Source: an uncultured Planctomycetia bacterium
GTDB taxonomy: Bacteria > Omnitrophota > Gorgyraeia > Tantalellales > Tantalellaceae
DNA: 64,000 nucleotides
Assembly (NCBI GenBank): GCA_964409365.1
Contig: CAYPCX010000001.1
Coordinates: 202,075 to 266,074 of the forward strand
Direction: 5' to 3'
Shown here: piece by piece, positions 4,393 to 58,676 of the stretch
Layout of the letters: every line of letters starts with the position of its first letter
How positions within the stretch are numbered: position 1 is the first letter of the stretch
Notes under the pieces: model-generated
The model's input: the letters and a program-made list of their open reading frames with translations, nothing else
Told to the model about the DNA's origin: nothing
Database searches by the model: none
Made by a program: the position numbers and the translations under genes

Positions 4393-4418
4393 TCAGATTT
4401 ATCCGGAGAGGTTGCAAA

Positions 4419-4450
4419 GCAGGTCGCGTTTCCCGCGACCTGCTTTTTTT
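4419..4450 (+). terminator. Rho-independent terminator
   Basis: GCAGGTCGCG-tttcc-CGCGACCTGC followed by TTTTTTT. Confidence 0.7.
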
Positions 4451-4602
4451 ATATATGAGCCCATTGCGGGGAATAGGGGATATAAGTATTGACACGGTAA
4501 ATCTTTTATTTTATACTTTCCCTTTCAGCGGGATTTATTAATAACTATTACACATAAGCAAAGTTATATAAAAGGGCGGCACAGCCCTGAAAGGAAGATA
4601 CC

Positions 4603-5634: not shown

Positions 5635-6819
5635 ATGAACAAGTTGCCAAAGGGATTTTTTGCTAACGGCATCCATTGCGGCCTGAAAAAGAAGAGAAAA
5701 GACCTTGCGCTTTTCTATTCGGAGAAAGACTGCAAGGTGTCGGCGCTTTTTACCACTAACGTGGTAAAGGCCGCCCCGGTGATCCTGGGAATAGAGGCCG
5801 TTCGTAAGAAGAAGCCCGTAAAAGCGGTTTTGATAAACAGCGGGAACGCCAATTGTATGACCGGTTCGCGTGGTCTCGAGGACGCCAGGGATATGGCGGC
5901 CATGGCCGCGAAAGAGCTCGGTGTTCCTAAAACAGCGGTACTTGTCTCATCGACAGGGGTAATAGGCCAAGCGATGCCGATGGAGCCCTTTGAAAAAGGG
6001 ATCCACCGGCTTGTGAGGGGGCTTTCACGATCGGGACTTCATGACGCGGCCGAAGGGATAATAACGACCGACCGGTTCCCGAAGAAGATGACACGCACGT
6101 TCACCGCGGGCGGTAAGACGGTGACGATGACCGGTGTGGCGAAAGGCGCGGGGATGATACACCCGAACATGGCCACGATGCTCTGTTATGTCATGACGGA
6201 CGCGAACATAACGAAAAAAGCAATGGACAAGGCGCTTTTTTCGAGTGCGGAGGTATCTTTCAATGCCATTACCGTCGACGGGGACATGAGCACGAACGAT
6301 ACGGTCATGCTTCTCGCGAACGGAGAGGCCGGGAACAGGGTGATAGGAAATAGCGGCCGTGATCTTGCCGTGTTCCAGGAGAATCTCGACCAGGTCATGA
6401 AAGAGCTGGCGAAGATGATCGTCCGGGACGGTGAAGGCGCGAGCAAATTCATTGAAGTGCACGTAAAAGGCGCCAGGACGAAGACGGGAGCGAAAAAAGC
6501 GGCCGAAGCAATAGCAAGTTCCATGCTCGTCAAGTGCGCCGTTCAGGGAGGCGACCCCAACTGGGGGCGTATAGCTTCCTCGGTAGGTTCCAGCGGTATC
6601 CGGTTCGATCCGGACAAAATGGAGATAAAGATGGACGGCGTGACTTTTTTCAAAAAGGGGAGTGTGGTCTCTTCGAGAGAAGAGGAAACGGGGCACGTTT
6701 TCAAGGGGAAAGACGTTTCGATAGAAGTGAACCTTCATCGCGGGAAGAGCGAAGCTACGTTCTGCAGCTGCGATATCTCGAAAAGATATATCACGCTTAA
6801 CTCGTATTATACGACATGA
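5635..6819 (+). CDS. argJ: Bifunctional glutamate N-acetyltransferase / amino-acid acetyltransferase
   Basis: The self-cleavage-site region ATMLCYVMTDANI. Length is 394 aa. Confidence 0.95.
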   Translation: MNKLPKGFFANGIHCGLKKKRKDLALFYSEKDCKVSALFTTNVVKAAPVILGIEAVRKKKPVKAVLINSGNANCMTGSRGLEDARDMAAMAAKELGVPKTAVLVSSTGVIGQAMPMEPFEKGIHRLVRGLSRSGLHDAAEGIITTDRFPKKMTRTFTAGGKTVTMTGVAKGAGMIHPNMATMLCYVMTDANITKKAMDKALFSSAEVSFNAITVDGDMSTNDTVMLLANGEAGNRVIGNSGRDLAVFQENLDQVMKELAKMIVRDGEGASKFIEVHVKGARTKTGAKKAAEAIASSMLVKCAVQGGDPNWGRIASSVGSSGIRFDPDKMEIKMDGVTFFKKGSVVSSREEETGHVFKGKDVSIEVNLHRGKSEATFCSCDISKRYITLNSYYTT

Positions 6820-6820: not shown

Positions 6821-6868
6821 TCAGAAGACAGAAAACAGATTATCTGACATCTGTCTTCTGTTATCTGG
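6821..6868. repeat. R/Y mirrored hairpin (CAGAAGACAGA ... TCTGTCTTCTG), same family as 1911-2010
   Basis: An 11-bp perfect stem immediately after the argJ stop. Confidence 0.6.
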
Positions 6869-7746: not shown

Positions 7747-7747
7747 T

Positions 7748-7862
7748 ACTGAGGTTCTGGGGACACGTCTGTGTAGACAACATGTAAACGACAAAACTGA
7801 GGTTCTGGGGACACGTCTGTGTAGACAACATGTAAACGACCAGACGTGTCCCCAGAATATAT
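7748..7862 (+). terminator. REP-like terminator, tandem (left-arm half copy plus complete copy)
   Basis: actgaggttctggggacacgtctgtgtagacaacatgtaaacgac occurs twice. Only the second copy is completed by cagacgtgtccccagaatatatttc. Confidence 0.6.
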
Positions 7863-7883
7863 TTCTAGATCGACGAGGATAAC

Positions 7884-9065
7884 ATGGATATGAACGGGGT
7901 CAAGAAGTTATATGATGAGTATGTGCTGTCTACATATACCCGGCAGGATATATGCCTGGTGAAAGCTGACGGCATCTGGGTAGAGGATATCGAGGGAAAG
8001 AGATACCTGGATTTTTTCCCGGGCTGGGCCGTGAGCGGCATAGGGCATCGTCATCCCCGGGTGGTCCGCAGGCTGAGAGAACAGATGGACAGGATACTGC
8101 ACGTGTCCAATAATTTCTACAACGATGTCCAGCCGGTGATCGCCGAAAAGATAATAAAGCATTCTTTTCCGGGCAAGGTGTTCTTCTGCAACAGCGGCGC
8201 CGAGGCGAACGAGGGCGCGATAAAGCTCGCGCGCCGTTACGGGAAAGGCTCAAGATACGAGATCATCACGATGGAGCAGTCTTTTCACGGACGGACGCTG
8301 GCCACGTTAACGGCTACGGGGCAGGAAAAGGTCAAGAAGGGTTTTTCACCGCTTCCGGCAGGGTTCAAGCATGTCCCCTTTAACGACATAGACGCTTTTC
8401 TGGCGGCCGTGACCGAAAAAACGGTCGCCGTTATAGTGGAACCCATACAGGGGGAAGGCGGGATAAACGTCGCCGATGATAAATATATGCGGTCATTAAG
8501 CGATATCTGCCGGGATAAGGACATGCTGCTGATGGTCGACGAAGTACAGACCGGCATGGGCCGTACGGGGAAGATGTTCGCCTACCAGCATTACGGGGTA
8601 GAGCCGGACGTCATGACCCTGGCCAAGTCGCTCGGAGGGGGTCTGCCGATCGGGGCGCTGGTCGTGGGTTCGAAGCACGCTGACGTCCTGCCGCCCGGTT
8701 CTCATGCTTCGACCTTCGGCGGGAGCCCGATAGTCTCCGCCGCCGCGCTCGGGGTATTCGAAGCTATAGAGGAAGAAGGCCTTCTCGAGAACGCGATCGA
8801 AATGGGAAAGTATCTGGTCGGGAAACTGAACGGGTTGAAGGAAAGATACCCGTCGATAGAGACCGTCAAGGGCAAGGCGCTGATGGTGGGCGTGAAACTG
8901 GCCGTGGAGGACGCTTCCTTCCTGGCCGAGGAATGCGCGAAAGAAGGACTTTTGATAAACTGCACGCAGAAGAACGTACTGCGTATCATGCCCTCGTTGA
9001 CAGTAACTGAAAAGGATGTCGATGAGGCCGTGAACAGGCTTTCAAAAGCATTGGAGAAGATATGA
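7884..9065 (+). CDS. argD: Acetylornithine aminotransferase
   Basis: Class-III aminotransferase motifs FFCNSGAEANE and LLMVDEVQTGMGRTG. Length is 393 aa. Confidence 0.9.
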   Translation: MDMNGVKKLYDEYVLSTYTRQDICLVKADGIWVEDIEGKRYLDFFPGWAVSGIGHRHPRVVRRLREQMDRILHVSNNFYNDVQPVIAEKIIKHSFPGKVFFCNSGAEANEGAIKLARRYGKGSRYEIITMEQSFHGRTLATLTATGQEKVKKGFSPLPAGFKHVPFNDIDAFLAAVTEKTVAVIVEPIQGEGGINVADDKYMRSLSDICRDKDMLLMVDEVQTGMGRTGKMFAYQHYGVEPDVMTLAKSLGGGLPIGALVVGSKHADVLPPGSHASTFGGSPIVSAAALGVFEAIEEEGLLENAIEMGKYLVGKLNGLKERYPSIETVKGKALMVGVKLAVEDASFLAEECAKEGLLINCTQKNVLRIMPSLTVTEKDVDEAVNRLSKALEKI

Positions 9066-9976
9066 AAAAAAAGGACCTTATATCGCTTGGCGATCTGAGC
9101 TCGAAAGAGATATTAAGCATAGTCAAGCTTGCCTGGAAACTGAAAAGAGCGCCCCTTTCCAGAAAAGGCATATTTAAGGACAAGACACTGGCTATGATAT
9201 TCCAGAAGCCGTCTAACAGGACCAGGATATCGTTCGAGGTGGCGATGGTCCAGCTGGGAGGGTACGCGCTGTATCTCAGTCCGAATGAAATAAAGATGGG
9301 TACGCGTGAAAGCGTCAAGGACGTGGCCAGCGTGATATCCCGTTACGTGGACGGCATAGTGGGACGGGTGTATTCGCACCAGGATATCATTGACATGGCG
9401 AGATATTCTGATGTTCCGGTCATAAACGGTCTGTCCGATACCGCCCATCCATGCCAGGCGTTAAGCGATATATTCACGATAATGGAAAAAGCGCGGAACC
9501 TAAGGAAGACCACCCTGGCGTATGTCGGCGACGGCAACAACGTGCTTAACTCGCTTCTCATGGTCTCGGCAAAGATGGGTGTGAGCATGAGGGTCGCTAC
9601 GCCCGAAGGATACGGCCCGCTTCAGGCGATCGTGAACGAGGCCGCGGAAGAGGCCGCGCGTAACCGCGCGAGTATACAGATATTCACCGATCCCCATGAA
9701 GCTGTCCGGGACAGTGACATAGTTTACACCGATGTATGGGTGAGCATGGGCCGCGAGGAAGAAAGAGAGAAGCGCCTGAAGGACTTTGAGAAGTTCCAGG
9801 TCAATGAACGGTTGATGAAGTCGGCGAAAAAAGACGCGCTCATAATGCACTGTCTTCCGGCGCACCGCGGGGAAGAGATAACGGACGTTATAGACGGGAA
9901 GAATTCGATCGTCTACGACCAGGCGGAGAACCGCATGCACGTGGAGAAAGCGATACTTCTTAAATACTTACAGTAG
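9062..9976 (+). CDS. argF: Ornithine carbamoyltransferase
   Basis: STRTR carbamoyl-phosphate motif and HCLPAHRGEE. The start overlaps the argD stop. Confidence 0.9.
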   Translation: MKKKDLISLGDLSSKEILSIVKLAWKLKRAPLSRKGIFKDKTLAMIFQKPSNRTRISFEVAMVQLGGYALYLSPNEIKMGTRESVKDVASVISRYVDGIVGRVYSHQDIIDMARYSDVPVINGLSDTAHPCQALSDIFTIMEKARNLRKTTLAYVGDGNNVLNSLLMVSAKMGVSMRVATPEGYGPLQAIVNEAAEEAARNRASIQIFTDPHEAVRDSDIVYTDVWVSMGREEEREKRLKDFEKFQVNERLMKSAKKDALIMHCLPAHRGEEITDVIDGKNSIVYDQAENRMHVEKAILLKYLQ

Positions 9977-9990
9977 GGATGAATAATGGA

Positions 9991-10094
9991 AGTGTCAAAG
10001 TGTCATCGTGCGCTTACTAGTGTCAGAGTGTCAAAGACAGCACTATGACACTTTGACACTAGCGAACACAGTGAGCGATGATACTCTGACACTG
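9991..10094. repeat. About 103-bp complex palindromic element (GTGTCA/TGACAC family), copy 1
   Basis: AGTGTCAAAGTGTCA ... TGACACTTTGACACT 15-bp inverted arms plus nested AGTGTCAGAGT/ACTCTGACACT. It lies between argF and argG. Confidence 0.65.
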
Positions 10095-10109
10095 TAAAGG
10101 AGATAGATC

Positions 10110-11285
10110 ATGGCTAAAAAGAAAGTGGTGCTTGCATATTCCGGGGGGCTTGACACTTCCGTAGCCATAAAGTGGCTCATGGACCGGGGGTTCGACGTGA
10201 TCTGCTACATGGCCGATGTCGGCCAGGGACAGGATGCGCAAAGCGGCCGCAAGCGCGCGATGAAGATCGGCGCCAAGAAATGCATAGTGGGCGACCTCAG
10301 AAAAAAGTTCCTTACCGATTACGCTTTCCGCTCGCTGAAGGCGGGGGCGCTGTACCAGGGGAAATACAACCTTGCCACGGCCCTTTCCCGGCCCCTGATC
10401 GCCGAGGCCATGGTGGACGTGGCGAAAAAAGAGAAAGCGTATGCGGTATCCCACGGGTGTACGGGCAAGGGCAACGACCAGGTACGTTTCGAGGTCACGT
10501 TTCACGTAAAGGCCCCGAAGCTGAAGGTCATAGCTCCCGTAAGGGAGTGGGAGCTTACCACGCGCGAATCCGAGATAGATTACGCGAAAAAACACAAGAT
10601 ACCGATAGAACAAACAAAGAAGAAACTTTACAGTATAGACCGCAATCTTTGGGGCGTGAGTGTGGAAGGCGGCAAACTCGAAGATCCCTGGGTGGAGCCT
10701 CCGAAGGATACATATGTCAGCATAGCCCGGCCTGAAAAAGCGCCTGCAAAACCGGGCTTCGTAAAGGTATCTTTCCGGAAGGGCATACCGGTCGCCGTTA
10801 ACGGCAGAAAGTACGACCCTGTGCGCCTGGTGCAGAAGCTTAACGACCTGGGCGGAAAGCACGGTGTAGGGAGGGTCGACATGATAGAGGACCGCCTTGT
10901 GGGCATAAAGTCCCGCGAGATATATGAAGCGCCCGGGTCCGCGATACTTTTCGCGGCGCATTCGGCGCTCGAGGAACTTGTTCTCGACCGGGAGGTGCGC
11001 AAGTATAAACAGGTCCTGGCGGGGCGTTACGCCGAGATGGTCTATTACGGCCTTTGGTTCACTCCCCTGAAGGGGGAGTTGGACGCTTTCGTGGACAAGA
11101 CGCAGGAAAAAGTGACGGGTGAAGTGAAACTCAAGTTGTACAAGGGAAGCGTCACGGTTTGCGGCAGAAGAAGCGCGCATTCACTTTACAAGTTCGAATT
11201 GGCGACGTATGGCAAAGACGACATGTTCGACCAGTCGCTCGCCAAGGGCTTCATAGATCTCTGGGCAATGCCGTATAAAAAGTAA
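10110..11285 (+). CDS. argG: Argininosuccinate synthase
   Basis: VLAYSGGLDTSV PP-loop motif. Length is 391 aa. Confidence 0.95.
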   Translation: MAKKKVVLAYSGGLDTSVAIKWLMDRGFDVICYMADVGQGQDAQSGRKRAMKIGAKKCIVGDLRKKFLTDYAFRSLKAGALYQGKYNLATALSRPLIAEAMVDVAKKEKAYAVSHGCTGKGNDQVRFEVTFHVKAPKLKVIAPVREWELTTRESEIDYAKKHKIPIEQTKKKLYSIDRNLWGVSVEGGKLEDPWVEPPKDTYVSIARPEKAPAKPGFVKVSFRKGIPVAVNGRKYDPVRLVQKLNDLGGKHGVGRVDMIEDRLVGIKSREIYEAPGSAILFAAHSALEELVLDREVRKYKQVLAGRYAEMVYYGLWFTPLKGELDAFVDKTQEKVTGEVKLKLYKGSVTVCGRRSAHSLYKFELATYGKDDMFDQSLAKGFIDLWAMPYKK

Positions 11286-11308
11286 CAAGGATAAAGGAAA
11301 AAGTAACA

Positions 11309-11411
11309 AGTGTCAAAGTGTCATCGTGCGCTTACTAGTGTCAGAGTGTCAAAGACAGCACTATGACACTTTGACACTAGCGAACGCAGTGAGCGATGAT
11401 GCTCTGACACT
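11309..11411. repeat. About 103-bp complex palindromic element, copy 2 (about 97% identical to copy 1)
   Basis: The same sequence as 9991-10094 with three substitutions. It lies between argG and argH. Confidence 0.65.
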
Positions 11412-11426
11412 TAACAAGGAGTTACC

Positions 11427-12803
11427 ATGGGTAAGTTATGGGGTGGACGGTTTTCGGGCAAAGAGATGCACCCGGATGTGCTTGGTTTCACGTCGAGTCT
11501 TGATATCGACAAGATACTCGCTAAGTATGACTGTCTGAGCAGCAGGGTGCACGTGGAAGTACTGGCGAAAAGCGGATATATCTCACCCGAGGAAAAGAAA
11601 AAGCTGCTTAAGGCCCTGGATGAACTTTCCATCGGGATAGATAACGGGACCTGGTCGCCGTCGGGGCACGAAGATATCCACTCCGCGGTACAGGACTACG
11701 TGGAGGGCAAGGTCCCCGAAGCCGCGAAGAAGATGCACACGGGCCGGTCGCGTAACGAACAGGTAGTAAACGACGTACGCTTGTATTGCAAGGATAGTAT
11801 TATCCGGATAAAAGGCTTGATCTTCGATCTTCAGTGCGAGTTGGTAGACCTCGCCGACAGACGGGCGGACGTGATAATACCGGGGTACACCCATCTTAAT
11901 CGCGCGCAGCCGGTGCTTTTTGCGCACCTGCTTCTGGCATACGTGGAGATGCTCGAACGGGATATCGGACGCCTTAACGGTGCGCTCAAGCGCTGCGACG
12001 TGTCCGTTATGGGCTCAGGCGCGATAGCGGGCTCGGCCCTGGAACTCGATCGTAAGCTCGTATCCGAAAAGCTTGGCTTCAGCATCGTGTCCACCAACAG
12101 CATGGACGCGGTCAGCGACAGGGATTTTATGACGGAAGTGGTGGCAGCGCTGTGTTTTATAGCGGTCCACCTTTCACGGATGAGCGAAGACCTTATCCTG
12201 TACAGTACTTCGGAATTCGGTTTCCTGGAGGTGGGAATGGAATACTGTACAGGAAGTTCGCTGATGCCGCAGAAAAAGAACCCGGATGTACTGGAACTTA
12301 TACGCGGGAGGACCGCCGGTGTTATAAGCGCGTTGAATTCTTTGTTCGTCCTGCAGAAGGGCCTGCCGCACGCTTACAACAGGGACCTCCAGGAGGACAA
12401 GAAGCCGCTCTTCGAATGCGTGGAGACGGTGGCGGGGGAGCTCGCCATGATGGGCGCGCTTGTAAAGACGATAAAGCTCAAGGAAGAAGCGGCCGGGAAG
12501 GCCGTCGAGGACGAATTTCTTTATGCCACGGACCTGGCAGAATATCTCGTGCGCAAGGGTGTGGCTTTCAGGGACGCGCATGACGCTGTGGGAAAGATAG
12601 TAAAGTATTGCGTCGATAAGAAGATAAATATCTCGGACCTTTCCATATCGGAGCTAAAGGATTTTTCCGATGAGCTTGAAGAGGACGTGTACGGCCTTCT
12701 CAACCCCGAGACTTCGGTGAACAACAAGAGAACCGTCGGGAGCACGAAGCCCGATATGGTGAAAAAAGAGATAGCGGGCTGGAAAAAGAAACTCAGGAGA
12801 TAA
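11427..12803 (+). CDS. argH: Argininosuccinate lyase
   Basis: MGKLWGGRF start and the fumarate-lyase signature GSSLMPQKKNPD. Length is 458 aa. Confidence 0.95.
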   Translation: MGKLWGGRFSGKEMHPDVLGFTSSLDIDKILAKYDCLSSRVHVEVLAKSGYISPEEKKKLLKALDELSIGIDNGTWSPSGHEDIHSAVQDYVEGKVPEAAKKMHTGRSRNEQVVNDVRLYCKDSIIRIKGLIFDLQCELVDLADRRADVIIPGYTHLNRAQPVLFAHLLLAYVEMLERDIGRLNGALKRCDVSVMGSGAIAGSALELDRKLVSEKLGFSIVSTNSMDAVSDRDFMTEVVAALCFIAVHLSRMSEDLILYSTSEFGFLEVGMEYCTGSSLMPQKKNPDVLELIRGRTAGVISALNSLFVLQKGLPHAYNRDLQEDKKPLFECVETVAGELAMMGALVKTIKLKEEAAGKAVEDEFLYATDLAEYLVRKGVAFRDAHDAVGKIVKYCVDKKINISDLSISELKDFSDELEEDVYGLLNPETSVNNKRTVGSTKPDMVKKEIAGWKKKLRR

Positions 12804-14890: not shown

Positions 14891-15757
14891 ATGATAAAGG
14901 GTTCGTATGTAGCTATCGTTACGCCATTCAAGAACGGTAAGGTGGACGAGAAGGCGTTCCGCAAGCTTATAGAGTTCCATATAGACAAGGGAAGCGACGG
15001 TCTTGTGCCGTGCGGTTGCACCGGGGAAGCCGCCACGCTGAGCATGGCCGAGCAGAAACGGCTTATCAAGATAACCGTGGAGACGTCAGCGAGACGCATC
15101 CCGGTGATCGCCGGGACCGGCTCTAACAACACGGAAGAAGCGCTGGAGTTGACCACTTTCACCCGGAAGGCAGGATGTGACGGGGCGCTCATGATAACGC
15201 CTTATTACAACAAACCGACGCCGGAAGGGCAGTACCGGCATTACGCGAGAGTCGCCAGCAAGGTCGACATCCCCATAATGCTGTACAACGTTCCTTCACG
15301 GACGGGGATATCCATGTCCCCGGCCACGGTAGCGCGCCTCGCGAAGATAGATAATATTGTCGCGATAAAGGAGGCGGCCGGCAGCGTACAGCAAGTGATG
15401 GATATATTGAACCTCTGTGATATCACGGTGATGAGCGGCGATGACGCCATGACCCTTCCGTTCATGTCCGTGGGCGCGGCAGGCGTGGTAAGCGTGGTGG
15501 CCAATATCATCCCCGGCCGGGTGCACGATCTTGTCCAGACCTTTCTGGACGGCAGGACAGAGACCAGCCGCAATATCCATTATGGGATATTGGAATTGTG
15601 CAAGGCCATGTTCATCGAGACCAATCCCATACCCGTGAAAACAGCCCTCAGCATAATGGGCATGGTGAACGAGGAGTGGCGGCTTCCGCTTTGTGAGATG
15701 CGCAAAGAGAACAAGGAAGCGCTGAAAACGGTGCTGAAAAAGTTCAAATTAATTTAG
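14891..15757 (+). CDS. dapA: 4-hydroxy-tetrahydrodipicolinate synthase
   Basis: VAIVTPF, GTTGE-like CGCTGEAATL and the Schiff-base lysine region. Length is 288 aa. Confidence 0.9.
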   Translation: MIKGSYVAIVTPFKNGKVDEKAFRKLIEFHIDKGSDGLVPCGCTGEAATLSMAEQKRLIKITVETSARRIPVIAGTGSNNTEEALELTTFTRKAGCDGALMITPYYNKPTPEGQYRHYARVASKVDIPIMLYNVPSRTGISMSPATVARLAKIDNIVAIKEAAGSVQQVMDILNLCDITVMSGDDAMTLPFMSVGAAGVVSVVANIIPGRVHDLVQTFLDGRTETSRNIHYGILELCKAMFIETNPIPVKTALSIMGMVNEEWRLPLCEMRKENKEALKTVLKKFKLI

Positions 15758-15760
15758 GTT

Positions 15761-15836
15761 GCAGGTATCAGGTAGCAGGTGTCAGGCGGAGGGAGAAGAC
15801 CTGTTTTTTCCAAAGACCTGAAACCTGAGACCTGAC
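15761..15836. repeat. CAGGT-heptamer / ACCTG-heptamer mirrored hairpin element
   Basis: gcaggtatcaggtagcaggtgtcagg ... cctgaaacctgagacctgaca. Between dapA and dapB. Confidence 0.55.
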
Positions 15837-15849
15837 AAGGAGAGCATAC

Positions 15850-16600: not shown

Positions 16601-16672
16601 GGACTGAGGTTCTGGGGACACGTTTCTTGTAACGGCAGGGGAACGACGAAACATGTCCCCAGAATATATTTC
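16601..16672 (+). terminator. REP-like terminator, copy with a compensatory inner stem (GTTTC/GAAAC)
   Basis: ttctggggacacgtttc ... gaaacatgtccccagaatatatttc. The outer stem is conserved and the inner stem co-varies. Confidence 0.6.
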
Positions 16673-17875: not shown

Positions 17876-18376
17876 ATGGCGACGGCTTACCTTTGTATCG
17901 GATCGAACGTAGGGGATAAACGGTCGAACTGTGAAGAAGCCGTCAGGCGGTTACAGGCGGCCGGGGACATCAAGGTCCGGGCCCGGTCCGGTCTTTACAG
18001 GACGGAACCCGTAGGGGGCCCGCCCCAGGAAGAATACCTCAACGGTGCGCTCGGCATCGAGACAACGCTGTCTCCCGGGGATCTGCTCCGCGTCCTCAAG
18101 GATATCGAAAAGGACATGGGACGCAGAGAGACGAAAAAGAACCACCCCCGCATCATCGATATCGATATCCTTTTCTATGATGATCTGGTGATGAACTCCG
18201 AAGGGTTGACGATACCGCATCCCCGCGTACATGAAAGGTATTTTGCGCTGAAAGGGCTCGCGGAAATAGCTCCTTTTGCGTCGCATCCGGTCGTCGGCAA
18301 GACCGTGAGTGAGTTATACGAAGAGGTCGGGGAACAGAAGACAGAGGACAGAAAACAGAAAACAGAAACGAAATGA
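17876..18376 (+). CDS. folK: 2-amino-4-hydroxy-6-hydroxymethyldihydropteridine pyrophosphokinase
   Basis: AYLCIGSNVGD, RTEPVGGP and RIIDIDILFY motifs. The C-terminal tail EQKTEDRKQKTETK is encoded by a GACAGAA-type repeat. Confidence 0.85.
   Translation: MATAYLCIGSNVGDKRSNCEEAVRRLQAAGDIKVRARSGLYRTEPVGGPPQEEYLNGALGIETTLSPGDLLRVLKDIEKDMGRRETKKNHPRIIDIDILFYDDLVMNSEGLTIPHPRVHERYFALKGLAEIAPFASHPVVGKTVSELYEEVGEQKTEDRKQKTETK
18333..18370. repeat. Purine-rich half of the GACAGAA-type element, lying inside the folK 3' end
   Basis: cagaagacagaggacagaaaacagaaaacagaaacg. No pyrimidine-rich partner follows. Confidence 0.5.
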
Positions 18377-19224: not shown

Positions 19225-19290
19225 GATTCTGGGGACACGTCTGTGTAGACGACATGTAAACTACCAGACATGTCCCCAGAATATATTTCC
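19221..19290 (+). terminator. REP-like terminator copy (overlaps the panC stop codon)
   Basis: ctgagattctggggacacgtctgtgtagacgacatgtaaactaccagacatgtccccagaatatatttcc. Confidence 0.6.
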
Positions 19291-19300: not shown

Positions 19301-20284
19301 GTGATGAAAAGACCGGAGTTTGACGCGAAATACAAGGAACACCTGACCAGGAAGATACTGGACCTGAAGAAAGAAAAAGGGGCGCTTATCGTCGCCCATA
19401 ATTACCAGCGCGACGAGATACAGGATATTGCCGACATAACGGGCGATTCGTACGCCCTTGCCTGCAAGGTAGCTAAGGCGAAAGAGGAACTGGTGGTCTT
19501 CTGCGGCGTGAAGTTCATGGCGGAGAGCGCTTATATGCTTAGCCCGGGAAAGACGGTGCTGCTCCCGGTCGAGGAAGCGGGATGCCCGCTCGCTGATATG
19601 ATCACCGTGGAGAAGCTCAAACAGAAGAGGCAGGAGTATCCGGAAGCCGCGGTAGTATGCTACGTGAACTCTTCGGCGGCGGTCAAGGCGGAAAGCGATA
19701 TATGCTGCACCTCGTCCAACGCCATACAGATCGTCAGATCCCTGAAGGAAGAGAAGGTGATCTTCGTGCCCGATAGGAACCTCGGAAGGTACGTGAGAGA
19801 GCGCGTTCCGGAAAAAGACGTGATACTATGGGACGGCTACTGCATCGTGCACAAGCGCCTGACCAAAGAAGAAGTGCTGGGGACTAAGAAACTGCACCCC
19901 GAAGCCGAGTTCATAGTGCATCCCGAGTGTCAAAAGGAGGTGCTTGACCTTGCCGACTATATAGGAAGCACGGCGGGTATGATAAAGTACGTAAAGGAAT
20001 GTCCGCGCAAGGAATTCATCATCGGCACTGAAATGGGTATCATATATCGTCTTAAGCACGACAATCCGGAAAAACAGTTTTATGTTCCGGCCGACCATTT
20101 TATATGCGCCAATATGAAGCTGACGACCCTGGGATGGCTGGCAAGGTCCCTGGAGAAGGAGATCTACAAAATAGAGGTCCCCGAGGGTGTGGCGGCAAAG
20201 GCCCGCAAGGCGCTCCAGAGGATGGTAGACGTTACCGAGAACCAGATGACAGATGACAGACGTCAGAAGACAGAAGACAGATGA
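19301..20284 (+). CDS. nadA: Quinolinate synthase A
   Basis: LIVAHNYQ, FCGVKFMAE and the three Cys ligands. The C-terminal tail ENQMTDDRRQKTEDR is encoded by a repeat. Confidence 0.9.
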   Translation: MMKRPEFDAKYKEHLTRKILDLKKEKGALIVAHNYQRDEIQDIADITGDSYALACKVAKAKEELVVFCGVKFMAESAYMLSPGKTVLLPVEEAGCPLADMITVEKLKQKRQEYPEAAVVCYVNSSAAVKAESDICCTSSNAIQIVRSLKEEKVIFVPDRNLGRYVRERVPEKDVILWDGYCIVHKRLTKEEVLGTKKLHPEAEFIVHPECQKEVLDLADYIGSTAGMIKYVKECPRKEFIIGTEMGIIYRLKHDNPEKQFYVPADHFICANMKLTTLGWLARSLEKEIYKIEVPEGVAAKARKALQRMVDVTENQMTDDRRQKTEDR

Positions 20285-20323
20285 CAGGATTACTCTTTTC
20301 TGTTCTCTGTCCTCTGTTTTCTG
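20244..20323. repeat. R/Y mirrored element (CAGAAGA heptamers / TCTGTYC heptamers), spanning the nadA stop
   Basis: cagatgacagatgacagacgtcagaagacagaagacagatgacagg ... cttttctgttctctgtcctctgttttctg. Confidence 0.55.
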
Positions 20324-21202: not shown

Positions 21203-22900
21203 ATGAGCGGCCAACTTATCCTCATGCTTATAGGCGGCCTCGGACTGTTCTTCTTCGGCATGCAGACAATGTCCGACGGCTTGAAGAAAATAGCCGGGGA
21301 GCGTCTTAAATCTATCCTTCACATGTTCACGAAGGTACCCCTCATCGGTGTTCTTGTCGGCGCGGCGGTCACCTGTCTTATCCAGTCTTCCAGCGCCACA
21401 ACCGTGATGGTTGTCGGTTTTGTCAATGCGGGTCTTTTGGCGCTGAAACAAGCCATAGGCGTCGTGATGGGCGCGAACATAGGTACTACGTTCACCGCGT
21501 GGCTGGTATCATCTATGGCTATTTTTAAGATAACGCATTATGCCCTTCCGGCGGTAGGCATAGGTTTTGCCCTCAACACTTTCGGCAAAACGAAGAAGAC
21601 GAGGTTCTGGGGACAGGTCCTTATGGGGTTCGGCCTTCTTTTTCTCGGTCTGGGCTTCATGAAAGATGCTTTTGAGCCGCTGCGGCAGAGCCCGCACGTG
21701 AGGGATATCTTCGCCAAGTTCAGCGCTAATCCCATGCTCGGCGTGCTTGTCGGCATGCTCATAACGATGCTCATCCAGAGTTCCAGCGCGACCATAGCTA
21801 TAGTGCAGGTCATGGCTTTTAACGGCATCATAAGTTTCCCGGCCGCCATCCCTTTGATGCTCGGGGACGACATCGGCACAACGATAACCGCGCAACTCGC
21901 CGCCGTCGGGACCACTGTAGACGCAAGGCGCGCCGCAATGTCGCACACGCTCTTTAATGTTATCGGTGTCGGGTATTTCCTCATATTTGTTTACAACGGG
22001 TGGTTCGTCAAGGCCGTGGATTTCATTATACCCGGCCAGATCACCGCGAAGAACATAATGATCCATATCGCCGTCGCCAACAGCGCTTTCAAAATAATAA
22101 ATGCCCTTGTTTTCCTGCCTTTCATAGGATTGCTGGAGAAAGCGAGCATCTGGCTTGTCCCGAAGAAAAAAGGCGCTATTGAAATGGGGCCGAAGTTCCT
22201 CGAAAAACATCTTCTCGAGACGCCGCCCATAGCAATAGAACAGGCCCGCAGGGAAACAGTGAGGATGATGGGCCTTGCCAGCAAGTCCGTTTCCAGCGCG
22301 GTCAAGAGTTTCTTTGAAAACGATCTTTCCGCCCTGAAACCCGTGGCCAAATTGGAACAGGCAGTTGATAATCTCCAGTCGGCGATAACGCAGTACCTGG
22401 TCGAACTTTCGCAGAGGGTTCTGAGCCCGGAAGAGTCGCAGGAGCTCCCGGTGCTGATACACAACGTGAACGATATAGAAAGAATAGGGGATCATTCCGA
22501 GAATATTGTGGAGCTTACGGAGCGAAAGATAGACAAAAAACTGCCTTTTTCGGAAGAGGCTATTAGCGAACTCAGGCTCATGTGGAACGAGCTCAACGGC
22601 ATGATGATAGAAGCGGAAGAGGCTCTGAGGAAGAACGATTCACAAATGGCGGAAAACGTCCTGAGAAGGGAACAGCGCGTGAACAAGTTCCAGTCTGACC
22701 TGAAAAAATCACACGTGAACAGGCTCAATAGCGGTGCCTGCGACATACAGTCAGGCGTCGTTTTTATCGATTTTGTCGACAACTTGGAAAAGATAGGCGA
22801 TCACCTGACGAACGTGGCCCAGGGGGTCATCGGCGAGATGAGATGGAGAGGGTACCAGGGTGAAGACATCACCGCCGAAGAAGCTTCTTCTGCTACCTAA
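21203..22900 (+). CDS. Na+/phosphate cotransporter family protein (NptA-like) with a C-terminal PhoU-like domain
   Basis: Duplicated Na/Pi-cotransporter membrane repeats (QSSSATT... twice) and C-terminal PhoU-like helical repeats. Length is 565 aa. Confidence 0.8.
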   Translation: MSGQLILMLIGGLGLFFFGMQTMSDGLKKIAGERLKSILHMFTKVPLIGVLVGAAVTCLIQSSSATTVMVVGFVNAGLLALKQAIGVVMGANIGTTFTAWLVSSMAIFKITHYALPAVGIGFALNTFGKTKKTRFWGQVLMGFGLLFLGLGFMKDAFEPLRQSPHVRDIFAKFSANPMLGVLVGMLITMLIQSSSATIAIVQVMAFNGIISFPAAIPLMLGDDIGTTITAQLAAVGTTVDARRAAMSHTLFNVIGVGYFLIFVYNGWFVKAVDFIIPGQITAKNIMIHIAVANSAFKIINALVFLPFIGLLEKASIWLVPKKKGAIEMGPKFLEKHLLETPPIAIEQARRETVRMMGLASKSVSSAVKSFFENDLSALKPVAKLEQAVDNLQSAITQYLVELSQRVLSPEESQELPVLIHNVNDIERIGDHSENIVELTERKIDKKLPFSEEAISELRLMWNELNGMMIEAEEALRKNDSQMAENVLRREQRVNKFQSDLKKSHVNRLNSGACDIQSGVVFIDFVDNLEKIGDHLTNVAQGVIGEMRWRGYQGEDITAEEASSAT

Positions 22901-22949
22901 AGTTCCCGGAAATCCTGTCACTTACGTAAGTTGTTTCCCCCGCATCCTA

Positions 22950-23117
22950 CTTGCCCCTCGGCGTGGATACGACGTGCAGGATAAGTTCGACCACATAACT
23001 TATGTTCACTTCGTTCCATAAGTTATGGTCTCACTTGCCCCTTGGCGTGGATACGACGTGCAGGATAAGTTCGACCACATAACTTATGTTCACTTCGTTC
23101 CATAAGTTATGGTCTCA
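22950..23117. repeat. Exact tandem duplication of an 84-bp unit (2 copies, 1 mismatch), each with an internal 11-bp hairpin
   Basis: cttgcccctYggcgtggatacgacgtgcaggataagttcgaccacataacttatgttcacttcgttccataagttatggtctca occurs twice. Each unit begins with a -35-like TTGCCC. Confidence 0.8.
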
Positions 23118-23118
23118 C

Positions 23119-23146
23119 TTGACTTTTTTCACTTCTTTTGTATAAT
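23119..23146 (+). promoter_or_regulatory. Sigma70 consensus promoter (TTGACT - 16 nt - TATAAT)
   Basis: Located immediately after the tandem repeat and 60 nt upstream of the IMPDH-like gene. Confidence 0.5.
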
Positions 23147-29565: not shown

Positions 29566-31358
29566 GGATGATACGCACACACACTTGCGGTGAATTAACG
29601 GCAAAGGACATCAAAAGGGATGTCGTGCTTTGCGGGTGGATAGTCGCCAGAAGGGATCACGGCGAGATAATCTTCATGGACCTCTGGGACAAGCACGGCA
29701 TGACGCAGATCGTCTTTGACCCCGAAGAGAACAAGACAGCTCATGAAAAAGCCCATCAGCTGCGCAATGAGTACTGCGTGAAGATCTATGGCAAGGTCGC
29801 TAAAAGGCCCGAAGGCACGATCAACCCGAAAATAACGACAGGCGAGATCGAAATAGACGTGGACAAAATAGAAGTTCTTTCCGAATCCGACACGACCCCG
29901 TTCGAGATAAGGGAAGACTGGGGAAAGAAGAATATCTCGGAAGAGGTCCGTCTCAAGTACAGGTATCTGGACCTCAGACGTCCCTCGATGCTGGAGAGGC
30001 TCCGCATAAGGCATAAGGTCTGCAAGTCTTTCTCCGATTTCCTTGACGGGGAGGGTTTTATATCGGTGGAAACGCCCATGCTCACCAAGTCCACCCCGGA
30101 AGGAGCAAGGGATTATCTGGTGCCCTGCAGGATACAGCAGGGCAGTTTCTACGCGCTTCCGCAGTCGCCGCAGATATTCAAACAGCTTCTCATGGTAGGG
30201 GGGGTCGAAAAATATTTCCAGATAGTCAGATGTTTCCGCGATGAGGATCTCCGCGCCGACAGACAACCGGAGTTCACGCAGCTCGACATGGAGATGTCGT
30301 TCGTCGAACAGGACGACATTTTCGACGTTTGCGAACGCATGTTCAAAAAGCTTTTCAAGGACGTAGCGGGAGTGGATATAAAGATCCCTTTCCGGAGGAT
30401 GGATTATGACGAAGCGATGGACCGTTACGGCAGCGATAAACCGGACACGCGTTTCGATCTTTTCCTGCATGACCTGGCCGGGGAGGTGAAAGATTGCGAT
30501 TTCAAGATATTCAGGGACGTCCTCGCCGCGGGAGGCAGGGTGATGGGGCTCGCCGCGCCGGGTTACGGCGGGATAAGCAGGAAAGAGATAGATGACCTTA
30601 CTTCTTTTGCCGCCGATCACGAAGCCCGGGGGCTGGCGTATTTCAAGGTGGAAGAAAACGGACTCGTTTCCCCGGTCGCGAAGTTCTTCTCTAAAGGAAC
30701 GCTTGAGGCCCTGCGCGAGAGGACCGGCGCGAAGACGGGCGACATGATATTCATGGTCGCCGACGCCGACAAAGATATCGCGCGCGGAGCGCTCGGCGCT
30801 CTAAGGCTCAAGATCGGCAGGGACAAGGGTTTAATAGACCAGGACAGGTTCGACCTTCTCTGGGTGGTTAACTTCCCGCTTTTCAAGTGGAACAGGGATG
30901 AGAAGAGATGGGTATCGGAACACCACCCGTTCACGTTGTTCAGGGAAGAGGACATGGAGTTCCTGGACAAGGGCGAGCTCGATAAGGTCAGGTCGCTGTC
31001 CTATGACTGCGTCCTGAACGGGAGCGAGATAGCTTCGGGCAGCATAAGGATACACAGGAGGGACATACAAAAGAAGATATTCGACACGCTCGGCCTGACA
31101 AAGGAGGAGTGCGAAGTAAAGTTCGGCTTCCTGCTGGAAGCCTTCAAGTATGGCCCTCCTCCGCACGGGGGGCTGGCTTTCGGTATAGACAGGCTGATAA
31201 CCATGTTCACGAAGGACCAGTCTATCCGTGAGGTCATCCCGTTCCCCAAGACGCAGAAAGGCGTTTGCCCTCTTACCGGGGCGCCGACACCGGTGGATAA
31301 CAAACAGCTCGGGGAATTGGGACTGAAGTTAGTAAAAGCGAGAAACAATGACAAATGA
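29566..31358 (+). CDS. aspS: Aspartate--tRNA ligase
   Basis: N-terminal OB fold (RTHTCGEL...GWI), the FRDEDLRADRQPEFTQLD motif 2 and the GGLAFGIDRL motif 3. The ATG at 29566 is preferred over the upstream ORF-track start. Confidence 0.9.
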
Positions 31359-31404
31359 CAAAATCCAAATGACAAAAGTTTTGTCATTTGTGCTTTGATA
31401 TCTG
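31346..31404. repeat. AATGACA heptamer repeats plus an AAATGACAAAAG/TTTTGTCATTT hairpin, overlapping the aspS stop
   Basis: aatgacaaatgacaaaatccaaatgacaaaagttttgtcatttgtg. Confidence 0.5.
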
Positions 31405-31425
31405 TCATTAACAAAGGGGGACGGT

Positions 31426-32830: not shown

Positions 32831-35084
32831 AGAACTGAAAAAGCAGGGAGTAGAAGGCATAGTGGGCATTCTGAAAAGGAATGAAACGTTCTCGATACTT
32901 TTGATATTTTTGTTCCTGGTGGCGGCCCTTTCCAGCATATTCATCAGTCCGCGTTTTTACCATGGTATCGTGAACGAGGGCGATGTCGCTCTCAAAGAAG
33001 TATTCGCGCCGTATGATTTCACTTATTTTTGGGGAGTGGACGAGGAGGGAACACAAAAAGCCAGAAAAGAAGCAGTAGAAGCGGTACCATATTTTCTGTA
33101 TCGCGATATCGACTCCGAGGAAAAAACAAGATCGCGGCTGGGCAGGTTCTTCGACGCCCTGAAACAGCAGAAGCAGGAGGAGGCCGCTCTGGACGTGAAA
33201 ATAGCGGCCGTTAAAAAAGAGGGTGGAACAGACTTGTCCGACAGGGACATCCGGTCGCTCATGGATCACCCGGATGCGGACGCCCTGAGGAGCACGACCC
33301 TTGAGATCCTCGACAAGATCTACCTGCTTGGTTTTATCGGCAAAAACAATATCGAGATGCTTAAGAAAGAGCAGGCGGAGAAGGTCATTATATTTGATAG
33401 GGCTACGGGTGTGTATGTAGAACGCGACGCGCAGGACCTTCTCGACGAGGACAGGATGAAGGAGACCGTGCGCGAGATGGTCACGGAAGACCTTGACGCG
33501 AACAGGAAGACCAAACAGGCGGACGAGGCTCTGCTGACCGGGTACATATCGCCGAACCTCGAGCCGGACGAGAAGACCACTTTGGACGAGAGGGAAGAGG
33601 CTCTTAATAAGACAGAGCCGATATACAAGAGCTGGACCGTGAAGAAGAACGAGCTCATCATCGGTAAAGGCATGAGGGTAAGCGCCCGGCATGTCGCGCA
33701 GATAACGCAGATAAGGAGCATTTTTAGGCCCGGCAAGTCCCCGGTGTTCTTTTTCGGCGTACTCCTTCTTTTTGCCCTCATGGGCCTTGCCGCGGGCATT
33801 TTTACGGCCTTTAACCGGAAAATGAATTTCCTGAGGAACACCAAGGAGATCGCGATCGTCCTTATCAATATGCTGCTGGTTATCGTGATCTCGGATTTCA
33901 TAGTGCAGTCCCCGCAGCCCAGTTATTTCATCCCGATGGCGAGCGTAGGAATGCTTATCACGCTTCTTGTGGGTTTCAATATAGGTTTCTTGAGCGTGGT
34001 CATCATGAGCATACTGATCTCTGTCCTTGTCGGCGGGAAGGTGGAACTGGCATTCGTACTGTTCATAGGGAGCGTAGTAGGTATGTTCGCCGTCAGGGAG
34101 GCGCGGCGCCGCGCGAATATATTGTGGGCCGGCCTTTTTGTGGGCCTGGCGAAGTTCCTCGCGATAGTCAGTATTGGCCTCATAAACAACATGGATATCG
34201 ATTTTTTCCTGGACGACGGCGTTTGGGGCATAGCCAGCGGCATGTTGTCGGGTTTCATTGTCATGGGTCTTCTCCCCGTGTTCGAACATTTCTTTAAGGT
34301 GCCCACTAATATCAGCCTGCTGGAGTTATCCGACCTTAATCATCCGCTTCTCAGGAAACTGGCGGTCGAGGCCCCGGGCACATACCATCACAGTATAATG
34401 GTAGGGAACCTCGCCGAGGCGGCCTGTGACGCGATAGGGGCGAACAGCCTGCTGGCGCGCGTGGGCGCATATTATCATGATATCGGCAAGATGACCAAGG
34501 CGGAATATTTCAGCGAGAACGAGATGGGCGCCGGCAGCAAGCATTCCAAGCTCACGCCGCAGATGAGCGCGCTTATCATAGGTAAGCACGTGAAGGAAGG
34601 CGTCGAGATGGCCAATAAGTATAAGCTCAACAAGACGATAATCGACTTCATCAACCAGCACCACGGCACCAGTCTGATACAGTATTTTTACCAAAAGGCC
34701 ATCGAAAAATCCCCGCAGGGTGAAGAGCTTAACGAAGCGGTTTACCGTTATCCCGGGCCCAGGCCGCAGACGAAGGAAAGCGCCATAGTGCTTCTCGCGG
34801 ACTCGGTAGAGGCATCGAGCAGGTCTCTTGAGGAACCGACCCCTTCGAGCATAAGGAATCTCGTAAGGAAGATAGTGAACAACAAGTTCATAGACGGCCA
34901 GCTTGATGAGTGCGACCTCACGCTCAAGGACATGCACAAGATAGCGGAGAGCTTCGTGAGGGTGCTCATGGGTTTTTTCCACACGCGGCTAAGCTATCCC
35001 GAAGACGTGAAAAAGGACAATAGCGGACAACCAGATGAGAATAACGGTAAACTGCGAAAACAGAAACCGCCGAAGAAAAGTTGA
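32823..35084 (+). CDS. 7TM-receptor / HD-domain phosphohydrolase (PgpH/YqfF-like cyclic-di-AMP phosphodiesterase family)
   Basis: An extracellular N-domain, 7 TM helices and a C-terminal HD domain (HHSIMVGNLAE...YYHDIGKM). Length is 753 aa. Confidence 0.85.
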   Translation: MNKELKKQGVEGIVGILKRNETFSILLIFLFLVAALSSIFISPRFYHGIVNEGDVALKEVFAPYDFTYFWGVDEEGTQKARKEAVEAVPYFLYRDIDSEEKTRSRLGRFFDALKQQKQEEAALDVKIAAVKKEGGTDLSDRDIRSLMDHPDADALRSTTLEILDKIYLLGFIGKNNIEMLKKEQAEKVIIFDRATGVYVERDAQDLLDEDRMKETVREMVTEDLDANRKTKQADEALLTGYISPNLEPDEKTTLDEREEALNKTEPIYKSWTVKKNELIIGKGMRVSARHVAQITQIRSIFRPGKSPVFFFGVLLLFALMGLAAGIFTAFNRKMNFLRNTKEIAIVLINMLLVIVISDFIVQSPQPSYFIPMASVGMLITLLVGFNIGFLSVVIMSILISVLVGGKVELAFVLFIGSVVGMFAVREARRRANILWAGLFVGLAKFLAIVSIGLINNMDIDFFLDDGVWGIASGMLSGFIVMGLLPVFEHFFKVPTNISLLELSDLNHPLLRKLAVEAPGTYHHSIMVGNLAEAACDAIGANSLLARVGAYYHDIGKMTKAEYFSENEMGAGSKHSKLTPQMSALIIGKHVKEGVEMANKYKLNKTIIDFINQHHGTSLIQYFYQKAIEKSPQGEELNEAVYRYPGPRPQTKESAIVLLADSVEASSRSLEEPTPSSIRNLVRKIVNNKFIDGQLDECDLTLKDMHKIAESFVRVLMGFFHTRLSYPEDVKKDNSGQPDENNGKLRKQKPPKKS

Positions 35085-35496
35085 TCTTTCAAAAGCGAAG
35101 AAAGTAGCCGAGACCGTATTGAAGACCTTCGGCAAAAAAGACGCCGTGGTGAACATTGTCTTTATCAGCAACCAGAAGATAAGGGCGCTCAACCGCATGT
35201 ATCTCGGCAAGGACTCTTCGACGGATGTCCTTGCCTTCCCGAGCGGGGATACTGCGGGTCTCAGGTCTCAGGTCTCAGGTCTCAGGAAAGGTTTTCTGGG
35301 GGACGTGGCGATATCGTCGGACAAAGCGGCCGGGAACGCCGGGGAATACGGCACTGCTTTCAAAGAGGAAATAGCCCTTTACGTGATACACGGGGTCCTG
35401 CACCTCCTGGGGTACGATGACAGGACGAAAAAAAGCAGAAAAGTTTTACAGCGAAAAGAACATGAGCTCCTACAAAAAGCAAAAGCAGTCATATAG
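35035..35496 (+). CDS. ybeY: Endoribonuclease YbeY (rRNA maturation factor)
   Basis: HGVLHLLGYDD zinc-binding motif. It contains an in-frame (GGTCTCA)x4 heptamer insertion (GLRSQVSGLRKG). Confidence 0.85.
   Translation: MRITVNCENRNRRRKVDLSKAKKVAETVLKTFGKKDAVVNIVFISNQKIRALNRMYLGKDSSTDVLAFPSGDTAGLRSQVSGLRKGFLGDVAISSDKAAGNAGEYGTAFKEEIALYVIHGVLHLLGYDDRTKKSRKVLQRKEHELLQKAKAVI
35257..35286. repeat. (GGTCTCA)4 heptanucleotide tandem repeat inside the ybeY CDS
   Basis: gggtctcaggtctcaggtctcaggtctcagg. The same motif occurs in intergenic CAGGT-family elements. Confidence 0.7.
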
Positions 35497-36190: not shown

Positions 36191-36220
36191 AGTATCGAGT
36201 ATCAAGTATCAAGTATCAAG
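36191..36220. repeat. (AGTATCR)4 heptanucleotide tandem repeat
   Basis: agtatcgagtatcaagtatcaagtatcaagg, directly after the dgkA stop. Confidence 0.7.
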
Positions 36221-41816: not shown

Positions 41817-41830
41817 AGAAAGGATAGGTC

Positions 41831-41920: not shown

Positions 41921-41922
41921 AT

Positions 41923-42792: not shown

Positions 42793-42836
42793 GGTGGTTT
42801 TTTAGTTGTTAGTTATGTAAAGCGAGTTTAACAGGG

Positions 42837-43100: not shown

Positions 43101-43177
<77 letters not shown>

Positions 43178-58638: not shown

Positions 58639-58676
58639 AGCCATATTGTATTTTTAGTCCATTCATGATAGACTTT

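Follow-up and report, generated by a model that had tools for sequence, protein, structure and literature searches.

Two near-identical palindromic elements flanking argG in an Omnitrophota genome, probable copies of an interspersed intergenic repeat

Introduction

In an uncultured bacterium of the Omnitrophota (GenBank assembly GCA_964409365.1), the argininosuccinate synthase gene argG stands between two almost identical palindromic elements, copy A in the argF-argG spacer and copy B in the argG-argH spacer, and the question raised by this locus is whether the elements concern argG at all or are copies of a repeat that occupies spacers of many kinds. The DNA analyzed, called the window here, is the whole 64,000-nt stretch of contig CAYPCX010000001.1 from position 202,075 to 266,074 of the forward strand. 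An earlier note on this DNA had proposed that the repeats might permit excision or amplification of argG, gene-specific attenuation or termination, or mobilization in the manner of a miniature inverted-repeat transposable element (MITE). It suggested that copies be counted, that variation in the copy number or presence of argG be looked for, and that RNA structure be predicted, and it named as contrary evidence a ubiquitous repeat with hundreds of copies and no special association with argG. We favor, with a probability of about 0.6, the reading that both elements belong to a non-autonomous repeat interspersed among intergenic sites, of the kind represented by repetitive extragenic palindromic (REP) sequences, their hairpin-forming doublets (REPINs) and bacterial interspersed mosaic elements (BIMEs). 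The elements make up a new family of extragenic palindromic repeat, which is an ordinary kind of object.

Results

The features on which the argument rests are as follows.

9062 to 9976, plus strand: argF, with its stop codon 14 nt before the base of hairpin A
9990 to 10093, plus strand: element copy A, in the argF-argG spacer
10046 to 10093, plus strand: module M of copy A, TGACACTTTGACACT then AGCGAACACAGTGAGCGA then TGATACTCTGACACT (nhmmer and 19-copy alignment)
10110 to 11285, plus strand: argG, argininosuccinate synthase (NCBIfam NF001770, 582 bits)
11308 to 11411, plus strand: element copy B, between argG and argH (98% identity with copy A)
11364 to 11411, plus strand: module M of copy B (nhmmer and 19-copy alignment)
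11427 to 12803, plus strand: argH, with an AAGGAG ribosome-binding site (RBS) just 3' of hairpin B, not sequestered
43645 to 43692, plus strand: singlet copy of M, identical to A and B at 40 of 48 positions, 122 nt upstream of the open reading frame (ORF) at 43815

Copies A and B are direct repeats of 104 nt each, 1318 nt apart, and differ at two positions (10068/11386 and 10083/11401; 98.1% identity), so that the 103 bp and 97% first reported were essentially right, as was the placement of the elements in the two spacers. Both copies hold the inverted 15-bp arms and nested palindromes that had been described, namely, AGTGTCAAAGTGTCA with TGACACTTTGACACT and, as the nested pair, AGTGTCAGAGTGTCA with TGATACTCTGACACT; AGTGTCAAAGTGTCA also pairs with TGATACTCTGACACT, which gives the element terminal inverted repeats like those of a MITE. 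Two positions of the outer arm pair in copy A depart from Watson-Crick pairing in sequence and fold (one A.C mismatch and one G.T wobble). With up to two mismatches allowed, the arm 15-mer was counted 9 times in the window, where shuffled sequence would give 0.07. The repeats and the hairpin are real and far beyond chance. They are not an assembly artefact either, because an identical ArgG is encoded on two independently assembled contigs (337 kb, ENA; 15 kb, JGI), each with both elements and the same two copy-specific single-nucleotide differences, and because a 1.3-kb Logan contig with identical ArgG breaks inside the elements at both ends. Near-identical repeats break short-read assemblies (two Logan contigs stop inside the elements), and repeats such as these risk being mistaken for gene cassettes or regulatory signals.

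Comparison with diverged copies placed the conserved part of the element in its 3' half, a 48-nt module (M) that consists of TGACACTYTGACACT, an 18-nt core and a second TGACACTYTGACACT; in units, these are two TGACACTN octamers, two AGYGARCGA 9-mers forming the core, and two further octamers. The 5' half is a degenerate reverse complement of M, represented in the window by two octamer pairs and a single 9-mer, and copy A accordingly reads, 5' to 3', two octamers (AGTGTCAR twice), one 9-mer, two more octamers, a 12-nt loop and module M. The full element is thus an inverted doublet (degenerate reverse-complement M, short loop, M), and singlets, that is, M alone, also exist. At two loci elsewhere (L149 and L196) the 5' half is a plain (AGTGTCAR)n array, and L216 holds tandem repeats of a 33-nt unit made up of arm and core. 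The arms are tandem arrays, with two octamer units per arm in the window elements and 3 to 7 in related loci. Outside the three elements of the window the heptamer AGTGTCA occurred 5 times (3.8 expected), and a reading as DNA-uptake sequence (DUS/USS) was rejected because the heptamer is not dispersed.

The doublet folds to a single hairpin of about 45 bp. As RNA, the region of copy A (9985-10100) was predicted to form one long imperfect hairpin at -57.7 kcal/mol (z -9.3), so that structure prediction did yield a stable stem; as DNA, the same region folded at -28.4 kcal/mol (z -6.2). The argG-argH spacer with copy B folded at -60.7 kcal/mol and with wider flanks (11278-11443) at -64.0 kcal/mol, and the predicted folds of A, B and the full copies at L149 and L207 spanned -52 to -64 kcal/mol.

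Copies of M were searched for with an nhmmer profile, and 19 were aligned. The source genome sequence inspected was 81.5 kb of one contig. In the window the profile gave five matches: one on M in each of copies A and B, one on the singlet at 43645 and, on the reverse strand, a weaker one on each 5' half. The singlet, noted earlier as a third partial copy, is real and matches the 3' half of the element only (84% over 50 nt by blastn); it lacks a complementary arm and is followed at 43693-43735 by CTGWCNT heptamer units. A further singlet lies about 8 kb past the window end on the same ENA contig (L224, 20449-20496), flanked by genes for a DUF3108 protein and a flavodoxin. The 81.5 kb of source contig therefore hold four copies of M, in two full doublets and two singlets; A and B agree at 46 of 48 positions, and the singlets agree with the doublets at 40 (83%) and 45 (94%) of 48 (n = 4). 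The copy count proposed earlier was thus made for this part of the genome, where it gave two full and two half copies. Of the contrary evidence named in advance, the lack of special association with argG was largely borne out.

Copies of M were also found with nhmmer on 15 other contigs. In other contigs the element or M lies, among other places, between UDG and priA, a malic enzyme and a hypothetical gene, a TPR gene and metH, an aminotransferase and DAHP synthase, and murG and murC. In these metagenome contigs M was intergenic every time and never beside argG, and all 19 aligned copies lie between ORFs. Singlets in the TGACACT sense end 10 to 16 nt before the next start codon and antisense singlets start 2 to 44 nt after the preceding stop codon, small numbers in either case. 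The diverged copies were recovered, by blastn and nhmmer, from a metagenome scan with a gapped two-arm pattern, which returned mainly plain (AGTGTCAR)5-6 arrays; the JGI contig of the window itself was not among the matches listed.

The gene string argC, argJ, argB, argD, argF, argG, argH, lysA, dapF, dapA was confirmed by NCBIfam. The closest ArgG homologues (73 to 81% identical) come from metagenome-assembled genomes (MAGs) of Candidatus Omnitrophota, and three relatives were inspected (L004, L006 and L007), the ArgG identity of the relatives used for comparing spacers being 78 to 81%. L004 and L007 have the order of the window, rplM-rpsI-argCJBDFGH-lysA-dapFAB-aminotransferase; the L006 locus is shorter, begins just upstream of argG and agrees from argG onward. 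None carries the element. Their argF-argG spacer is 39 to 40 nt (L004 and L007) and their argG-argH spacer 14 to 22 nt (all three), against 133 and 141 nt in the window. Along the whole string the spacers of the relatives range from -4 to 40 nt, and those of the window are 18, 72, 137, -4, 133, 141, 1, -4, 26, 92 and 102 nt; in 6 of the 11, hairpin repeats from no fewer than three families account for the expansion. The description of an otherwise tightly packed operon was therefore mistaken, as stable hairpins from other repeat families occupy four more spacers, argJ-argB (72 nt), argB-argD (137 nt), dapA-dapB (92 nt) and dapB-aminotransferase (102 nt). Those within the string, palindromes given without strand, are listed here.

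6822 to 6860: heptamer-array palindrome, argJ-argB spacer
7747 to 7865: TTCTGGGGACACGTCTG...CAGACGTGTCCCCAGAA hairpin, argB-argD spacer, with an exact 48-nt tandem duplication (units at 7755 and 7803)
15757 to 15840: heptamer-array palindrome (GTNNCAG)n...(CCTGANA)n, dapA-dapB spacer
16610 to 16664: TTCTGGGGACAC-family hairpin, dapB-aminotransferase spacer

The genome has been colonized by several hairpin repeat families, and the flanks of argG are two of many occupied spacers. Because M sits elsewhere on the contig and between unrelated genes, because the corresponding spacers of relatives are empty, and because neighboring spacers hold other hairpins, we find no association of the element with argG, and the bracketing is most likely incidental. 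Within the 40-nt argF-argG spacer of L004 a miniature palindrome of heptamer-like units was seen (5965-5990; CGTAACG TGTTACG CGTTACG), and related lineages may carry small versions of such arrays.

The footprints of insertion were not uniform. In L007 the argG-argH junction reads …AAATCGTAAAATAAGGAGTTATCATG, a comparison that suggests an ancestral junction of the form …AAAAAGTAACAAGGAGTTACCATG. Copy B is flanked on both sides by TAACA, with TAACAAGGA at 11283-11291 and again at 11412-11420, and AAAAAGTAACA occurs twice nearby (11277-11287 and 11298-11308), the duplicated unit AAAAAGTAACA(AGGA) adjoining copy B. Such a flanking duplication was absent at copy A and at the full copies in L149 and L207. 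Directly 5' of copy A, TGAATAAT at 9980-9987 agrees with one half of an ARG box (classical consensus, TNTGAATWWWWATTCANW); no second half-site was evident there, and the match is probably due to chance.

Further hairpin and heptamer repeats occur throughout the window, again given without strand.

781 to 834, 7755 to 7857, 16610 to 16664, 19226 to 19282 and 21588 to 21619: another family of interspersed hairpins, TTCTGGGGACACGTCTG...CAGACGTGTCCCCAGAA, at five places in 21 kb
1911 to 2008, 6822 to 6860, 15757 to 15840, 20243 to 20323, 31347 to 31409 and 41827 to 41921: tandem-heptamer palindromes
18333 to 18368, 36190 to 36220 and 58591 to 58709: further tandem heptamer arrays at gene boundaries

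The boundary arrays (for example of GACAGAA, CAGGTAT or AATGACA) usually have an inverted array after them, which makes a hairpin, and the purine-rich arm is always 5'. Two of them, at 18333 and 20243, reach into folK and nadA, respectively, at the 3' end of the ORF. A perfect (GGTCTCA)x4.3 array at 35257-35286 lies in frame within ybeY (35035-35496; YbeY endoribonuclease), where it adds GLRSQVSGLR, so heptamer arrays are not strictly extragenic. At 42826-43112, 3.3 copies of an 88-nt unit extend into the gene for tRNA-Arg(CCT) (43101-43177); each unit opens with the initial 12 nt of the tRNA (GTCCCCGTAGCT) and has a hairpin with a loop, GAGCGAAGCGAAC, that is similar to the core of M. These repeats may, from their sequence, be a repeated partial duplication of the tRNA, for example by integration events. 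Upstream of an IMPDH-like gene, at 22949-23121, an 84-nt unit occurs in tandem (98 to 99% identical), and its hairpin loop TTCACTTCGTTC is the reverse complement of the segment GAACGAAGTGAA of the M core.

The octamer of the element was found in similar arrays in distant phyla. Species-representative genomes (596 Gb) were scanned with the 15-mer AGTGTCARAGTGTCA, for which about 2,000 chance matches were expected; the source genome was not among the matches listed. Among those listed, 42 of 119 loci carried at least three octamer units (about 0.3 expected by chance extension), and 22 loci had an inverted array within 150 nt. The arrays among the matches listed were mostly from Nitrospirota, Nitrospinota and Omnitrophota, with one Lentisphaeria MAG and single cases in Elusimicrobia, Chloroflexia, Desantisbacteria and others; the Omnitrophota with AGTGTCAR arrays include the complete genome of Ca. 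Velamenicoccus archaeovorus.

L009, L013, L026, L027, L043, L049, L058, L085, L103, L110, L113, L114 and others: AGTGTCAR array loci

These arrays fill short spacers, starting right past stop codons or ending right before RBSs. In all loci that were retrieved, the AGTGTCA array lay 5' of the TGACACT array in 56 of 60 pairs (36 loci) and in the reverse order in 4 pairs (3 loci), a polarity that the palindrome shows whichever strand is read. We tentatively raise the possibility, which we hold to be unlikely, that the argG-flanking elements belong to an undescribed cross-phylum class of transcription-oriented hairpins, 5'-(AGUGUCAR)n-loop-(YUGACACU)n-3', that fill stop-to-RBS spacers in operons, with Omnitrophota, Nitrospirota, Nitrospinota and Lentisphaeria among the hosts. 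If so, the shared octamer and polarity would reflect a conserved trans-acting factor (an RNA-binding protein, an RNase or a RAYT-like enzyme; RAYT, REP-associated tyrosine transposase), and the arrays would be operon punctuation or a replicator system rather than neutral junk. The literature search found no paper with these arm sequences and none that described REP-like or such repeats in Omnitrophota. Cross-phylum octamer arrays of fixed polarity are the only mildly novel aspect of the locus, the remainder being an ordinary repeat. As polar hairpin arrays that recur in poorly studied phyla, they offer a handle on repeat origin, repeat spread and a possible role in operon mRNA processing in uncultured bacteria. 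At three loci (L150, 547-1743; L197, 182-817; and L160, 4122-4616, WNGR01) long arrays translate to ORFs of 8-residue periodicity that match Pfam Gp5_trimer_C (PF22178); these matches are probably spurious, caused by octamer-array DNA, and not real genes.

Two further features bear on the transcription of the elements.

4416 to 4446: terminator-like hairpin, preceding the likely arg promoter
4489 to 4517, plus strand: likely promoter of the arg string, TTGACA-17-TATACT, a consensus match only

Because of this promoter and because no terminator intervenes between it and the two spacers (consensus matches only), the elements are probably transcribed within a polycistronic RNA. Rfam at gathering thresholds gave one tRNA and nothing else in the whole window; at permissive thresholds miRNA-precursor models alone scored in the element, all of them below threshold, as befits a generic long hairpin. 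Downstream of both hairpins a T-run is lacking (tails, GTAAAGGAG and TAACAAGGAG), and the terminator scan listed neither. The hairpins are on this ground not intrinsic (Rho-independent) terminators, and intrinsic termination finds no support; nor does gene-specific attenuation, because the same module stands in many other gene contexts.

The hairpins could be selected cis-acting punctuation, kept for processing or stabilizing the operon transcript (for example, by RNase III cleavage or as exonuclease barriers), or possibly to adjust translation between stop codon and RBS, perhaps by way of a protein with affinity for AGUGUCA/UGACACU. We regard such selection as a possible but doubtful explanation. 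It would suit the very stable predicted hairpins and the neutrality of both differences between A and B for the fold of the sense-strand RNA, one of them falling in a bulge and the other replacing U-A by U.G. Position also fits, as hairpin A starts 14 nt past the argF stop codon and both hairpins end 4 to 6 nt before AAGGAG, which leaves the RBSs of argG and argH free. The polarity of the arrays in the retrieved loci and the placement of singlets relative to start and stop codons point the same way, and a post-transcriptional regulator has been proposed for TAACTGA arrays just upstream of start codons (MacGregor, PMC4679880). However, relatives run the same operon without any such element, and the occurrence of several unrelated hairpin families in equivalent spacers speaks for tolerance rather than for a needed specific signal. 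No covariation was seen among the copies compared, the positional rule draws on small numbers, and the RNA-level effect is one deduced from sequence.

It is improbable that the elements act instead as internal promoters, in which an outward sigma-70-like site in each would drive argG and argH independently.

10053 to 10082 (copy A) and 11371 to 11400 (copy B), plus strand: putative promoter-like TTGACA-18-GATGAT, 10 of 12 consensus positions

Both copies match the consensus at 10 of 12 positions, the reverse complement of the octamer contains TTGACA, and transcription from the predicted start would give the mRNA a leader of some 20 nt, RBS included; moreover, A and B read GATGAT where most other copies of M read GATGAC, a poorer -10 box. 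Yet this is a consensus match only, in a region with 14 promoter-like sites against 8.6 expected by chance, with a weak -10 box and an 18-nt spacer, and the site would lie inside a stable hairpin. Most copies of M lack the T at position 6 of the -10 box, and a sigma-70-type consensus may not reflect promoter usage in Omnitrophota.

The argG gene itself is native, compositionally and phylogenetically. Its identity to the L004 and L007 orthologues is 78 to 80% (range for neighboring genes, 63 to 85%) and its GC content at third codon positions (GC3) is 0.69, like that of its neighbors; horizontal acquisition was rejected because both values are typical of the neighborhood. Among nine public contigs that encode identical ArgH, neither an argF-element-argH deletion form nor a duplication of argG was seen; seven keep argF-argG-argH in single copy and two begin inside the repeat, so that the check for copy-number or presence variation revealed none. 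That the direct repeats permit or drive RecA-mediated excision or tandem amplification of argG is thus very improbable, physically feasible though it is given 104-nt repeats of 98% identity in the same direction 1318 nt apart (homology enough for occasional recombination), since contigs with identical ArgG or ArgH show the single-copy arrangement or break in the repeat, argG resembles its neighbors in identity and GC3, the same module flanks unrelated genes elsewhere, and loss of argG would yield an auxotroph.

Discussion

If the elements are copies of an interspersed intergenic repeat, as we favor, the M family would have entered or expanded in this Omnitrophota lineage after its split from relatives with spacers of 9 to 40 nt, and would have spread alongside at least two other hairpin-repeat families. 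A and B are closer to each other than to any other copy; probably, one was copied from its partner over 1.3 kb or gene conversion has kept the two alike. The mode of spread may have been transposition of the RAYT type or, locally, copying or conversion between these two. Insertion would have been tolerated between the upstream stop codon and an intact downstream RBS. Within a polycistronic arg mRNA, a highly stable stem-loop would arise between cistrons at each element and would most probably act as REP sequences do in Escherichia coli, by blocking 3'-to-5' exonucleases or as a site of RNase III-type processing, with segmental differences in mRNA stability around argG; alternatively, ribosomes terminating on argF might stall, since hairpin A begins 14 nt past the stop codon. 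REP sequences in Escherichia coli affect mRNA stability and translation. For argG itself the consequence would be small, its bracketing being most likely a by-product of the spread of repeats through tolerant intercistronic spacers.

Several points weigh against this reading. A target-site duplication of fixed length at every copy, as a MITE would leave, was not found, and the evidence on targets is inconsistent. No transposase, RAYT included, appeared in Pfam lists for about 81 kb of the contig (the precomputed lists lack about 32.9 to 51.5 kb of the window). The two halves of the doublet are unequal, M being well conserved and the complementary half variable (array only in L149 and L196), unlike in classical REPINs, and no clear compensatory changes were seen across the copies compared. 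A genome-wide repeat is suggested here from four copies in the 81.5 kb inspected, and the RNA-level effects of the elements are all ones that we infer. Pfam likewise identified no transposase among 10 atypical ORFs of the window or among the array-flanked ORFs of L150, L160 and L197, and no parent insertion sequence (IS) with matching ends was seen in the sequences inspected, in which no search was aimed at one. The lack of a fixed target duplication implies that this feature of cut-and-paste MITEs is not a trait of the family; it is compatible with movement of the IS200/IS605 or RAYT type and with copying through recombination or template switching, and proves neither. Of the four possibilities first proposed, only MITE-like mobilization agrees with the evidence, in the sense of an interspersed non-autonomous repeat; the elements have terminal inverted repeats, the fixed target duplication is missing, and no transposase was seen in about 81 kb.

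Among known systems, REPINs come closest. In these extragenic elements a conserved module is paired with an inverted copy, the doublet folds to a hairpin of about 100 nt, and more diverged singlets coexist with it (Bertels & Rainey 2011, PMC3116915), and as REP doublets they are mobilized by RAYT transposases (PMC3116915). In the source contig the doublets are 96 to 98% identical to each other and the singlets 83% and 94%, which is the direction expected of REPINs (PMC3116915; n = 4). The elements share with REPINs an extragenic location, a length of about 100 nt, and an inverted pair of modules around a short spacer that gives a long hairpin in single-stranded DNA or RNA; they also share the occurrence of singlets, which were the more diverged among the four copies of the source contig, and the absence of coding capacity and of a consistent target duplication. 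They differ in that their module is built of tandem 8-mers and 9-mers, where that of REPINs is an imperfect palindrome of 16 to 25 nt, that their halves are unequally conserved, and that the host is an Omnitrophota MAG, not a proteobacterium, with no RAYT in about 81 kb.

BIMEs and ERIC/IRU sequences are enterobacterial mosaics of short motifs in varying order, often inside operons; their transcribed stem-loops can stabilize upstream mRNA, and gyrase, IHF and Pol I are binding partners. The likeness lies in the combination of several short motifs, differently at each intergenic site, and in transcribed stem-loops; there is no sequence relationship, the motifs here being octamers, heptamers and a GAGCGAAGCGA-like core. 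MITEs such as Correia, RUP and Nezha are about 100 nt long and intergenic, have terminal inverted repeats and are co-transcribed, with possible promoter or processing effects. The elements resemble them in length, terminal inverted repeats, intergenic position, probable co-transcription with neighbors and possible effects as promoters or processing sites, and differ from them in the lack of a consistent target-site duplication.

At the level of the octamer the nearest parallels are tandem arrays. The cyanobacterial STRR are short tandem heptamer repeats. TAACTGA heptamer repeats are intergenic in Beggiatoaceae, Cyanobacteria and Bacteroidetes (MacGregor 2015, PMC4679880) and nearly always direct, with one indirect repeat against 169 sets of direct repeats (PMC4679880). 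The arrays described here have in common with TAACTGA and STRR repeats their units of 7 to 8 nt, short tandem runs that are almost only intergenic and often lie a few nucleotides upstream of start codons, and the sharing of one unit by distant phyla with no evident mechanism of transfer. They differ from TAACTGA arrays in being typically paired with an inverted array, so that a hairpin is formed, and in the conserved 18-nt core.

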